64,000 nt of DNA from Escherichia coli (GTDB lineage Bacteria > Pseudomonadota > Gammaproteobacteria > Enterobacterales > Enterobacteriaceae): NCBI RefSeq assembly GCF_003334255.1, contig NZ_QOWU01000013.1; one strand, written 5' to 3'. Below, piece after piece: positions 6,905 to 10,860 of this stretch (the stretch's first letter is position 1; each line of letters starts with the position of its first letter). Under the pieces are notes generated by a model. It ran no database searches. It was given only the letters and a program-made list of their open reading frames with translations, and was not told the DNA's origin. Both the position numbers and the translations under genes were made by a program.

Positions 6905-7010
6905 AAAAGAGTATGAGGCGGCTTTTGCCGGATGCGTCTACGCCTTATCCGGCCTACGGGTAGATACGTCTCGTAGGCCTGATAAGCGCAGCGCATCAGG
7001 CGTAAAGCAT
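6905..7010. repeat. REP (repetitive extragenic palindromic) element pair between deoA and deoC
   Basis: GCCGGATGCG...CGCCTTATCCGGCCTACG and inverted copy GTAGGCCTGATAAGCGCAGCGCATCAGGC characteristic of E. coli REP. Confidence 0.7.
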
Positions 7011-7015
7011 CTTAC

Positions 7016-7795
7016 TTAGTAGCTGCTGGCGCTCTTACCGTCGCCGTGACCCAGCGCTTTCAGCAGGCTTGCCAGCAGGCTGGAAGCGCCAAAGCGGTAG
7101 TGACGCGCATCTGCCCAGTCAGCACCGAACAGTTCATCTGCAATGGCGAGATATTTCTGCGCATCTTCCGCAGTACGCACGCCGCCCGCCGGTTTGAAAC
7201 CAACGGTTTTTTCTACGCCCATATCACGGATCACTTCCATCATGATGCGCGCGCTTTCCGGCGTCGCGTTCACAGCCACTTTACCGGTAGAGGTTTTGAT
7301 GAAGTCCGCACCCGCTTTGATGGAGATTTCAGACGCTTTACGGATCAGCGCTTCGTCTTTCAGTTCGCCGGTTTCGATGATCACTTTCAGCAGTACATTC
7401 GCTGCCGCGCAAGCCTCTTTACAGGCTTTCACCAGGTCAAAACCAACCTGCTCGTTACCCGCCATCAGCGCGCGGTACGGGAACACAACGTCAACTTCAT
7501 CAGCACCGTAGGCGATTGCCGCACGGGTTTCTGCCAGCGCGATGTCGATGTCGTCGTTACCGTGTGGGAAGTTGGTTACCGTAGCGATACGGATTTCCGG
7601 GGTGCCCTGCTCTTTCAGAGTTTTGCGAGCAATCGGGATAAAGCGAGGATAGATACAGATAGCGGCGGTATTGCCGACCGGAGTTTTGGCCTGATGACAC
7701 AGGGCGATCACTTTCTCGTCGGTGTCGTCGTCATTCAGGGTGGTCAGGTCCATCAATTTCAGTGCACGCAGGCTGCTTGCTTTCAGATCAGTCAT
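7016..7795 (-). CDS. deoC: deoxyribose-phosphate aldolase
   Basis: Recalled DeoC begins [36 protein letters not shown] at ATG 7795 (259 aa); the 267-aa track ORF has an N-terminal extension. Confidence 0.95.
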
Positions 7796-7839
7796 TTCAT
7801 TCTCCTGGCTTGTCGCCAATAAAATTCACCTTGCGAGTT

Positions 7840-7855
7840 TGTTAGTATTCTAACA
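7840..7855. promoter_or_regulatory. DeoR operator O2 (deoP2), one mismatch to the palindrome
   Basis: TGTTAGTATTCTAACA versus the 16-bp DeoR palindrome TGTTAGAATTCTAACA; about 45 bp upstream of the deoC ATG. Confidence 0.7.
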
Positions 7856-7873
7856 TCTACTCCGCAACACACT

Positions 7874-7940
7874 TCGATACACATCACAATTAAGGAAATC
7901 TACTTACAAGTTTGCATCACTGTAATGCGATCTGGTTCAA
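7874..7940. promoter_or_regulatory. deoP2 CRP/CytR region (two CRP-like half-site pairs)
   Basis: TTCGATACACATCACA (reverse TGTGA-N6-TCGAA) near 7874..7889 and TGCGATCTGGTTCAAA near 7924..7939, about 50 bp apart as expected for CRP1/CRP2 flanking a CytR site. Confidence 0.5.
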
Positions 7941-8052
7941 ATAATTCACTTTCAAATGAATGCGTCAGTGGTGGCAAACGCATCAGGATCAAAGTGAACA
8001 TCACGAAACTTCTTACAATGGCGCATCACCTTCGGCATAAAAGGAAAAGAAG

Positions 8053-9603
8053 ATGCCCACTTCTCATGAAAATGCACTGCAACAACGTTGCCAGCAAATT
8101 GTCACCAGCCCAGTGCTTAGCCCGGAGCAGAAGCGCCATTTTCTGGCACTGGAAGCAGAAAACAATCTGCCTTACCCACAGCTTCCTGCCGAAGCCCGCC
8201 GCGCGCTGGATGAAGGTGTAATCTGCGATATGTTTGAAGGTCATGCGCCGTACAAACCGCGCTATGTCTTACCCGATTACGCCCGTTTTCTGGCGAACGG
8301 TTCCGAATGGCTGGAGCTGGAAGGCGCGAAAGATCTTGATGACGCACTCTCTCTGCTGACCATTCTTTACCACCACGTACCGTCGGTCACATCGATGCCG
8401 GTCTACCTGGGGCAACTGGATGCGTTGTTGCAACCGTATGTTAGAATTCTAACACAAGACGAGATCGATGTTCGAATAAAACGTTTCTGGCGTTACCTCG
8501 ACAGAACCCTGCCAGACGCCTTTATGCACGCCAATATCGGCCCGTCTGATTCGCCCATTACCCGCGCGATCTTACGTGCAGATGCAGAGTTGAAGCAGGT
8601 TTCACCGAACCTGACCTTTATCTACGATCCTGAAATCACCCCTGATGACCTGCTGCTGGAAGTGGCGAAGAACATCTGTGAATGTAGCAAACCGCACATC
8701 GCCAACGGTCCGGTGCATGATAAAATTTTCACAAAAGGGGGCTACGGGATTGTGAGCTGTTACAACTCACTGCCGCTGGCGGGTGGTGGCAGCACGCTGG
8801 TACGCCTTAACCTGAAAGCCATTGCCGAGCGCAGCGAATCGCTGGATGACTTCTTTACGCGCACTCTACCGCACTACTGCCAGCAGCAGATCGCCATCAT
8901 CGATGCGCGGTGTGAATTCCTCTATCAACAATCACACTTCTTTGAGAATAGCTTCCTGGTGAAAGAAGGGCTGATTAACCCTGAACGTTTTGTGCCAATG
9001 TTTGGCATGTATGGGCTGGCGGAAGCGGTTAACTTGCTGTGTGAAAAAGAAGGGATTGCCGCGCGCTACGGTAAAGAAGCCGCCGCAAATGAAGTAGGTT
9101 ATCGCATCAGCGCGCAACTGGCGGAGTTTGTCGCCAATACCCCCGTGAAATATGGCTGGCAAAAACGCGCCATGTTACACGCACAGTCGGGGATCAGTTC
9201 CGATATCGGCACCACGCCGGGCGCGCGTTTGCCGTATGGCGATGAGCCAGATCCGATCACCCATCTGCAAACTGTCGCCCCGCATCATGCTTATTATTAT
9301 TCCGGCATCAGCGACATTCTGACGCTCGACGAAACCATCAAACGTAACCCGCAGGCACTGGTACAGCTTTGCCTCGGTGCCTTTAAAGCCGGAATGCGTG
9401 AATTTACCGCCAATGTCAGCGGTAACGATCTGGTTCGCGTTACCGGTTATATGGTGCGTTTGTCGGATTTAGAAAAATATCGCGCCGAAGGTTCACGCAC
9501 CAACACCACCTGGCTGGGCGAAGAAGCCGCACGCAACACTCGTATTCTGGAACGCCAGCCGCGCGTGATAAGCCATGAACAGCAGATGCGCTTTAGTCAG
9601 TAA
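8053..9603 (+). CDS. yjjI: glycine-radical-enzyme-like protein YjjI (DUF3029)
   Basis: 516-aa ORF divergent from deoC; synteny and length; 29-nt overlap with yjjW. Confidence 0.85.
8439..8454. promoter_or_regulatory. DeoR operator O1 (deoP1), perfect palindrome
   Basis: Exact TGTTAGAATTCTAACA; 599 bp from O2, the known P1-P2 spacing; lies inside the yjjI reading frame. Confidence 0.75.
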
Positions 9604-10438
9604 GATTATCCCCTTCTCCTGCGTTGACGGGCCAGGCAGTCGTCTGGCTCTGTTTTTGCAGGGCTGCAATCTGCGCTGCAAAAACTGTCACAATCCGTGG
9701 ACGATGGGACGTTGCAATGACTGTGGGGAGTGCGTGCCACAGTGTCCGCATCAGGCGTTGCAGATTGTTGACGGCAAAGTGGTGTGGAACGCTGTGGTTT
9801 GCGAGCAGTGTGATACCTGCCTGAAGAGGTGTCCGCAACATGCCACGCCCATGGCGCAATCCATGAGCGTGGACGAAGTGCTTAGCCATGTCCGCAAAGC
9901 AGTGCTGTTTATCGAAGGGATAACGGTGAGTGGCGGTGAAGCCACGACCCAGCTGCCGTTTGTGGTGGCGCTGTTTACTGCTATCAAAAACGATCCGCAA
10001 CTGCGCCATCTCACCTGTCTGGTGGACAGTAACGGCATGTTGAGCGAAACCGGCTGGGAAAAATTGCTCCCGGTGTGCGACGGCGCAATGCTCGATCTCA
10101 AAGCGTGGGGGAGCGAATGTCATCAACAACTCACCGGACGCGATAATCAGCAGATTAAGCGCAGCATCTATTTGCTGGCAGAGCGCGGCAAGCTGGCGGA
10201 ACTGCGTTTGCTGGTGATCCCTGGCCAGGTGGATTATTTGCAACACATCGAAGAACTGGCGGCGTTTATCAAGGGACTCGGCGATGTTCCGGTACGCCTG
10301 AACGCGTTTCATGCCCACGGCGTGTATGGCGAGGCGCAAAGCTGGGCGAGCGCCACGCCGGAAGACGTTGAGCCGTTGGCTGATGCGTTAAAGGTGCGCG
10401 GGGTGAGCCGGTTGATATTTCCGGCGCTCTATTTGTGA
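9575..10438 (+). CDS. yjjW: glycyl-radical enzyme activating protein (radical SAM with extra ferredoxin-like Cys clusters)
   Basis: 287-aa ORF with CxxxCxxC-type motif ([11 protein letters not shown]) and CxxCxxCxxxC motifs. Confidence 0.85.
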
Positions 10439-10439
10439 C

Positions 10440-10860
10440 ATGCCGGATACGGCCTACGGTTCGGCACAGACTTGTAGGCCTGATAAGACGCGTCAAGCGT
10501 CGCATCAGGCATTGTGCGCCAACTGCCGGATGCGGCGCGAACGCCTTATCCGGCCTACGGTTCGGCACAAACCTGTAGGCATGATAAGACGCGACAAGCG
10601 TCGCATCAGGCATTATGCGCCGACTGCCGGATGCGGCGTGAACGCCTTATCCGGCCTACGGTTCGGCACAGACTTGTAGGCATGATAAGACGCGACAAGC
10701 GTCGCATCAGGCATTGTGCGCCAACTGCCGGATGCGGCGTGAACGCCTTATCCGGCCTACGGTTCGGCACAAACCTGTAGGCATGATAAGACGCGTTAAG
10801 CGTCGCATCAGGCATTGTGCGCCAACTGCCGGATGCGGCGTGAACGCCTTATCCGGCCTA
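10440..10860. repeat. BIME: tandem array of at least 4 REP-pair units, about 100-bp period
   Basis: Unit GCCGGATGCGGCGTGAACGCCTTATCCGGCCTACGGTTCGGCACA...GTAGGCATGATAAGACGCG..AAGCGTCGCATCAGGCA recurs around 10440, 10540, 10640, 10740 and 10840 with point differences. Confidence 0.85.

Follow-up and report, generated by a model that had tools for sequence, protein, structure and literature searches.

Can the control elements of one operon lie inside the coding sequence of a gene transcribed away from it, or does the apparent overlap mean that the start of that gene has been placed too far upstream? The question is raised by a 64-kb stretch of Escherichia coli DNA, referred to below as the window, in which two DeoR operators of the deo operon and the reading frame of the divergent gene yjjI appear to occupy the same nucleotides. 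The initial annotation of the window left two alternatives: either divergent coding sequence harbors the deo control elements, or the start of yjjI is mis-assigned.

The segment from 7000 to 9700 is 100% identical to an E. coli K-12-type chromosome and was found in 5,424 of 5,426 complete E. coli genomes, where the annotation gives deoC, yjjI, and yjjW (Table 1). The first gene of deoCABD, deoC, begins with an ATG at position 7795 of the minus strand, and its translation starts MTDLKAS. Divergent from it and separated by a 257-bp spacer (7796-8052) is yjjI, which encodes a YjjI-family glycyl radical enzyme and whose end is overlapped for 29 nucleotides by the start of yjjW.

Table 1. Genes, operators, and promoter elements of the deoC-yjjI-yjjW locus (position 1 is the first nucleotide of the window)
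Feature	Position	Strand or location	Basis
deoC (deoxyribose-phosphate aldolase)	7016..7795	-	ORF; annotated deoC in 100% identical RefSeq record
deoO2, copy of the palindrome with one mismatch, TGTTAGTATTCTAACA	7840..7855	deoC-yjjI spacer	Motif scan
CRP-1 of deoP2, TGTGATGTGTATCGAA on the deo strand	7873..7888		CRP motif scan
CRP-2 of deoP2	7926..7941		2 mismatches to CRP core; 53 bp from CRP-1
yjjI (YjjI-family glycyl radical enzyme, 516 aa)	8053..9603	+	ORF, RefSeq, TIGR04040 (787 bits)
deoO1, perfect 16-bp palindrome, TGTTAGAATTCTAACA	8439..8454	Inside yjjI	0 mismatches
Conserved block upstream of the deoP1 -10	8464..8490	-	Low synonymous diversity; kept in 'E. alba' fragment
deoOE, weak third operator, TGATAAAATTTTCACA	8718..8733	Inside yjjI	12/16 matches
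yjjW (YjjW-family glycyl-radical activase)	9575..10438	+	ORF, RefSeq, TIGR04041 (396 bits)

Tested against the 16-bp palindrome TGTTAGAA/TTCTAACA, O1 is perfect, O2 carries 1 mismatch, and OE is degenerate, with 4 mismatches. When the whole 64 kb was scanned at up to 3 mismatches, O1 and O2 were the sole matches, and at up to 4 mismatches OE was the one additional match, giving three sites in total. On the deo strand, O2 has the sequence TGTTAGAATACTAACA, and it precedes the deoC ATG by 45 bp. The distance between O1 and O2 is 599 bp, both start to start and center to center, and the center of OE lies a further 279 bp beyond that of O1, so that all three sites are upstream of deoC. O1, and deoP1 with it, begins 386 nucleotides inside the yjjI coding sequence, and OE begins 665 nucleotides inside it. 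The initial annotation had already reported the perfect palindrome and its one-mismatch copy, both of which the motif scan recovers at the positions given, and its distance of 599 bp is exactly that of the coordinates. It had placed O1 about 385 bp inside yjjI, which agrees with a start at yjjI nucleotide 387, and had correctly labeled the distal, perfect site O1 and the deoC-proximal site with one mismatch O2. The 516-amino-acid yjjI that it described as starting 257 bp from the opposite-strand deoC is borne out by the list of open reading frames and the spacer, and the third operator that it proposed to look for near 8700-8730 was found there, as TGATAAAATTTTCACA at 8718-8733. Could such palindromes be functionless products of chance? 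Nothing except the shortness of the motif speaks for this reading. Shuffled sequences gave an expectation of 0.18 matches at up to 3 mismatches and in no case two or more, against the two observed with 0 and 1 mismatch; their spacings are exact, and approximately 30 genera keep the sites, so that chance is improbable to the point of being negligible.

The pattern of sites is familiar. Multimeric DeoR bridges O1, O2, and OE to form single or double loops in which both -10 regions are occluded; deoxyribose-5-phosphate releases DeoR, and CRP and CytR act at P2. The regulatory region comprising deoP1/O1, deoP2/O2, and OE was reportedly described by Dandanell and Hammer in 1985 and by Valentin-Hansen et al. 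in 1986, and Dandanell et al. in 1987 and Amouyal et al. in 1989 are said to have dealt with the same region and its looping by DeoR. These classic papers reportedly predate genome annotation and are said to have regarded the DNA upstream of P2 as a regulatory region, not as coding sequence. The operator sequences, the distances of 599 and 279 bp, and the predicted overlap with the -10 regions match the account of O1, O2, and OE in that literature of the 1980s. More recent work describes DeoR binding to O1 and O2 approximately 600 bp apart at the tandem promoters, with OE approximately 300 bp further upstream, and has shown in vivo that DeoR loops the DNA between deoO1 and deoO2 (PMC8053113, 2021); the looping studies of 1987-89 are cited in PMC4217526.

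The promoter elements follow the same plan. On the deo strand, the putative -10 hexamer TAGAAT lies inside O2 (7847-7852, minus strand) and again, as the likely -10 of deoP1, inside O1 (8446-8451, minus strand), where it is preceded by TGT and resembles an extended -10. Transcription from P2 would start near 7840, 7 nucleotides downstream of its hexamer, and by the same geometry P1, reading leftwards, would start near 8439. If the +1 of P2 is set there, the CRP-like sites are centered at -40.5 and -93.5, as in the published geometry of deoP2. In ETEC, a CRP ChIP-seq peak in the yjjI/deoC spacer covers the first of them, CRP-1 (PMC4287617). The conserved block upstream of the deoP1 -10 probably corresponds to the -35/upstream part of that promoter. 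A generic sigma-70 promoter scan of 7700-8900 called neither deoP1 nor deoP2, as both lack a good -35 hexamer. The same scan gave one plus-strand match, at 8699-8726 and overlapping OE, to which no weight was given because chance expects that number. In all, the three sites and two tandem promoters are very probably the DeoR operators and promoters of E. coli deoCABD, with two of the operators lying within genuine yjjI coding sequence. Operators, spacings, putative -10 hexamers inside operators, and CRP positions all match the E. coli deo region and no element differs; what we describe is the known deo regulatory region itself, not a mere lookalike, and its elements were already known.

Whether O1, deoP1, and OE lie in coding sequence depends on where yjjI begins. 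It is unusual for a gene to contain a promoter and two operators, and only 257 bp separate the annotated starts; both would be accommodated if the true gene began downstream of O1 and the deo control region were ordinary noncoding DNA. The protein itself argues otherwise. Position 8053 is the first possible start after a stop codon, so the reading frame cannot be longer, and the first methionine beyond O1 is M158, which means that a start excluding O1 would cost 157 residues. TIGR04040, an NCBIfam profile of 497 positions, matches residues 11-504 over its entire length with a score of 787 bits (cutoff, 498), and PF11230 is found on every YjjI homologue. Among homologues at 64-90% identity, the length is unchanged, and dozens of positions from 13 to 157 are invariant. 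Full-length representatives at 33-57% identity (approximately 490-530 amino acids) still align over the N-terminal region, from about residue 7-20 onward. Codons 109-128, just before O1, carry the normal signature of coding sequence, with conserved amino acids and free third positions. Near the C terminus lies the glycyl-radical motif RVTGY, in which R462 and G465 are invariant even among distant homologues; with its full-length profile match, this C-terminal motif, and the adjoining gene for the cognate radical-SAM activase (yjjW), the protein has the features of the YjjI family. The check on N-terminal conservation that the initial annotation had proposed thus places the beginning of the alignments upstream of O1 and not past 8454, and a mis-assigned start is refuted; we regard it as extremely improbable. 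It is the other alternative, embedding in divergent coding sequence, that profile, homologues, and coding signature support: O1, deoP1, and OE are embedded in genuine yjjI coding sequence, and the annotated start is correct.

A stretch of DNA that is both codon and operator should leave its mark on synonymous sites. O1 consists of the third base of yjjI codon 129 (TAT) together with codons 130-134 (GTT, AGA, ATT, CTA, and ACA, encoding V-R-I-L-T), and OE, in the same codon phase, of the third base of codon 222 together with codons 223-227 (D-K-I-F-T). We measured synonymous diversity in a codon alignment of 60 nonredundant enterobacterial yjjI sequences (<92% nucleotide identity), divided into 506 windows of six codons. 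Over the whole gene, the mean pairwise synonymous codon difference is 0.45. The window covering O1 (codons 129-134) has a synonymous difference of 0.011 and ranks 1/506, and that covering OE (codons 222-227) has a difference of 0.016 and ranks 2/506. Two prespecified windows would take the first two ranks by chance with a probability of about 8e-6 if windows were exchangeable; as the 60 sequences are phylogenetically related, the ranking serves as an internal control and not as a formal test. The remaining low windows are shifts by a few codons that overlap O1 or OE, codons 296-301, and codons 507-516, the last of which have low diversity because they overlap the yjjW start.

Codon usage within the operators is close to uniform. 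Among the 60 sequences, the codons of O1 are TAT in 58, GTT in 59, AGA in 45, ATT in 60, CTA in 59, and ACA in 60. Codon 131 is AGA in all 45 sequences that encode arginine there, the remainder being nonsynonymous single-nucleotide variants; its change to AAA, ATA, or GGA (arginine to lysine, isoleucine, or glycine) is the sole recurrent change in O1. Likewise, the OE codons are GAT in 60, AAA in 51, ATT in 57, TTC in 60, and ACA in 60. Two of the O1 codons are rare in E. coli yjjI, AGA being used for 2 of its 33 arginines and CTA for 2 of its 56 leucines. The block upstream of the P1 -10 coincides with codons 138-146, includes the rare codons CGA and ATA, and has a synonymous diversity of 0.0-0.34, lower than the 0.35-0.73 of codons 109-128, which lie on the transcribed side of O1. 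In these stretches, one set of nucleotides is read both as yjjI codons and as operator or promoter under strong purifying selection, and regulatory function has frozen the synonymous sites across Enterobacteriaceae and Hafniaceae. The same selection forces rare codons on the gene, namely, AGA and CTA in O1 and CGA and ATA in the P1 upstream block. In distant homologues, residues 131-134 (O1) and 222-228 (OE) fall in variable, indel-prone segments beside conserved motifs, so that the operators occupy parts of the protein that tolerate change.

The distribution of the sites was followed through 87 yjjI loci from other genomes, the window itself being extra. In every Enterobacteriaceae locus that reaches far enough upstream, and also in Hafnia and Edwardsiella, deoC divergently adjoins yjjI. 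In these deoC-adjacent taxa, the O1 16-mer has 0-1 mismatches nearly everywhere (2 in Edwardsiella and in two Citrobacter), and the nucleotide sequence of OE is identical in most genera. A site related to O2 occupies the same place relative to deoC in all Enterobacteriaceae loci, and the O1-O2 spacing across genera is mostly 596-604 bp, with smaller groups at 567-568, 589-592, 612, 626, and 675 bp. In Proteus and Providencia, yjjI is not adjacent to deoC, and both sites are absent from the gene, with 7-8 mismatches where O1 would lie and 11-15 where OE would lie.

Several taxa lack yjjI-yjjW between yjjV and deoC (Pantoea, Rahnella, Providencia, Mangrovibacter, and 'Escherichia alba'), and their gene order is yjjU-yjjV-(nupC)-deoC. 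In some of them, operator-like pairs occur much closer together (Pantoea, 142 bp; Mangrovibacter, 167 bp; 'E. alba', 199 bp). The last of these, a member of the Enterobacteriaceae, retains upstream of deoC a frameshifted yjjI fragment corresponding to residues 118-148 and 153-194 (tblastn E = 5e-18). Within this fragment, O1 (one mismatch) and the block upstream of P1 are preserved; OE, yjjW, and all other parts of yjjI are lost. In 'E. alba', the regulatory element has outlived its host gene, and the persistence of O1 in this remnant argues that its conservation reflects regulation, not a need of the protein or mRNA. Absent where yjjI lies away from deoC and kept in a pseudogene beside it, the operator sites depend on regulatory context and not on the YjjI protein. 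They probably arose in variable loops of a preexisting yjjI after the gene had come to lie beside deoC. We also considered insertion of a yjjIW cassette between preexisting operators, which is not supported, as O1 and OE lie in the body of the gene and not at its borders.

Could the conservation at codons 129-134 and 222-227 stem from the YjjI protein or its mRNA, through codon choice, structure, or pausing, or from CRP, instead of from DeoR? Rare codons can serve as translational pause sites, all three operators are within 2 mismatches of the CRP core TGTGA-N6-TCACA, and a CRP ChIP-seq peak inside yjjI lies approximately 20 bp from O1 in ETEC (PMC4287617). These points do not account for the fact that the conserved stretches copy one 16-bp palindrome that is also present in noncoding DNA at deoP2, nor for the variation of the encoded amino acids elsewhere in the YjjI family. 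The survival of the site in the frameshifted fragment of 'E. alba' and its absence where yjjI is not beside deoC are likewise against an origin in the protein or mRNA, as is the lack of any Rfam match in the region (structured-RNA search of 7000-10500, E <= 1), and DeoR looping between O1 and O2 has been seen in vivo (PMC8053113). We therefore consider an origin of the constraint in protein, mRNA, or CRP very unlikely, although part of the constraint at the three sites could reflect CRP.

The arrangement can be read as follows. O2 and deoP2 would act from the 257-bp spacer, and O1 with deoP1, as well as OE, from within the divergent yjjI. Multimeric DeoR bound to O1, O2, and OE would loop out the intervening 599, 279, or 878 bp and, in doing so, occlude the -10 hexamers located inside O1 and O2. 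Transcripts from deoP1 are predicted to start near 8439 and to carry a leader of approximately 644 nucleotides before deoC. As deoP1 lies inside the divergent yjjI, firing of this promoter would yield RNA antisense to yjjI, and the leader would be complementary to codons 1-129 and to the yjjI promoter region.

The nearest comparable case is that of the lac operon, whose auxiliary operator O2 lies in lacZ, 401 bp downstream of O1. As in lac, an auxiliary looping operator of a multimeric repressor is placed in coding sequence, several hundred base pairs from the main operator. However, lacO2 lies in the first gene of its own operon and on the same strand, whereas the deo arrangement puts two operators and an entire promoter into another gene, one transcribed divergently. 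Intragenic promoters in bacteria have reportedly been charted by a genome-wide promoter survey (bioRxiv 10.1101/2020.01.04.894907), and dual-use codons are said to be treated in a review of nontranslational selection on codon usage (PMC8410138). The deo-yjjI overlap resembles these cases in general, in that regulatory DNA within coding sequence distorts local codon usage. Unlike the statistical trend of such surveys, it concerns one experimentally characterized set of promoter and operators with near-absolute synonymous conservation throughout a family.

The elements are a textbook example of repression over a long distance through DNA looping, and their detection adds nothing new; that they overlap yjjI follows directly from genome annotation. 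A literature search found no paper that discusses the overlap of the deo elements with yjjI or that links yjjI and deoP1; two papers mention both yjjI and deoC, and one of them, PMC4287617, names the genes only in a CRP ChIP-seq table. To our knowledge, the synonymous-constraint ranking, the imposed rare codons, and the 'E. alba' remnant are new details on this known system. What they add is a clean and unusually strong case of bacterial codons with two functions that have been fixed across a whole family. There is also a practical side: recoding, codon optimizing, or deleting yjjI (e.g., in Keio-type mutants) would eliminate O1, OE, and deoP1 and change how deo is regulated, and phenotypes of yjjI mutants need to be checked for cis effects on deo.

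The arrangement also raises a testable question, that of regulation of the glycyl radical enzyme pair YjjI-YjjW by DeoR and deoP1. The yjjI-yjjW operon is bound by FNR and activated anaerobically (PMC3688515). Since yjjI contains O1, OE, and deoP1, and its promoter is enclosed by the O1-O2 loop, this operon might conceivably be controlled by DeoR and deoP1 as well, although we hold this to be a tentative and rather doubtful proposal. The 599-bp loop formed by bound DeoR could sequester the yjjI promoter, or DeoR at O1 and OE could act as a roadblock to elongating polymerase. Once deoxyribose-5-phosphate induces the operon, transcription from deoP1 would run head-on through the first 386 nucleotides of yjjI and its promoter, with antisense or collision interference on yjjI as the expected outcome. 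If this were true, YjjI expression would be tied to the availability of deoxynucleosides, which might hint at the substrate of the enzyme. The arrangement, long conserved as it is, would fit just as well if yjjI were a passive host of deo control elements. In a scan of the deoC-yjjI spacer for FNR sites at up to 2 mismatches, the sole match coincides with CRP-1.

Across loci L002-L088 from other genomes, the distance between the DeoR operators O1, inside yjjI, and O2, at deoP2, differs among genera and forms several classes. The commonest, 596 to 604 bp, is found in most genera, and the remainder are 589 to 592 bp (seen in some Enterobacter loci and in a few others), 567 to 568 bp (Pluralibacter and Trabulsiella), 612 bp (one Citrobacter), 626 bp (Hafnia), and 675 bp (Edwardsiella, whose O2-like site is weak). 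The distance from O1 to OE, the other operator within yjjI, is constant at 279 bp in the same loci; this is a multiple of 3, and therefore O1 and OE share codon phase. In 'Escherichia alba', the spacing between O1 and O2 has shrunk to 199 bp. The remainder of yjjI, OE, and yjjW are deleted at this locus, and a frameshifted yjjI fragment keeps both O1 and the deoP1 upstream block.

Features in and around yjjI (window coordinates unless a locus is named)
Feature	Position	Strand	Details
CRP peak/motif and O1 region	about 8379-8454		published ETEC ChIP-seq
Sigma-70-like match	8699-8726	+ (yjjI sense strand)	TCGCCA, 16-nt spacer, TAAAAT, upstream TG; generic promoter scan
Constrained synonymous block	8938-8955		TTCTTTGAGAATAGCTTC; yjjI codons 296-301; synonymous diversity 0.093
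yjjI/yjjW overlap	9575-9603		29 nt
Frameshifted yjjI pseudogene fragment	L092 2581-2809		upstream of deoC in 'Escherichia alba'; residues 118-148 and 153-194

CRP ChIP-seq in ETEC gave one peak at deoP2 and another 544 bp away from it, within yjjI; for the latter, the authors called the motif CGTACCGTCGGTCACA (PMC4287617). From this offset, the yjjI peak maps to window position ~8425, approximately 20 bp from O1, and the motif lies at 8378-8393. CRP might bind at or close to O1, because O1, O2, and OE are each no more than two mismatches away from the CRP core consensus. yjjI has also been described as bound and activated by FNR (PMC3688515). Allowing up to two mismatches, the sole match to the FNR consensus in the yjjI-deoC spacer (7796-8052) is at 7874-7887, which falls on CRP-1, the CRP site of deoP2.

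Once the windows that share codons with O1, OE, or the start of yjjW are set aside, the lowest synonymous diversity of any six-codon window in yjjI (gene mean, 0.45) was observed at codons 296 to 301, which include the non-preferred codons GAG and AAT. This block has no match to a DeoR-like site, a CRP-like site, or an Rfam family, so it may be a further embedded element. Diversity is also lowered over the final ~9 codons of yjjI, a drop that fits their overlap with the start of yjjW and with its ribosome-binding site. The sigma-70-like match overlapping OE is probably meaningless, since the single match in the region containing OE equals the number expected by chance.

The yjjU-yjjV-(nupC)-(yjjW/yjjI)-deoCABD neighborhood has undergone several rearrangements. 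In Edwardsiella, Providencia, and Mangrovibacter (L006, L089, and L093), the interval separating yjjV from the deo region contains a gene for a nupC-type nucleoside transporter; E. coli has no nupC-type gene in this interval, and that of Edwardsiella sits beyond yjjW.
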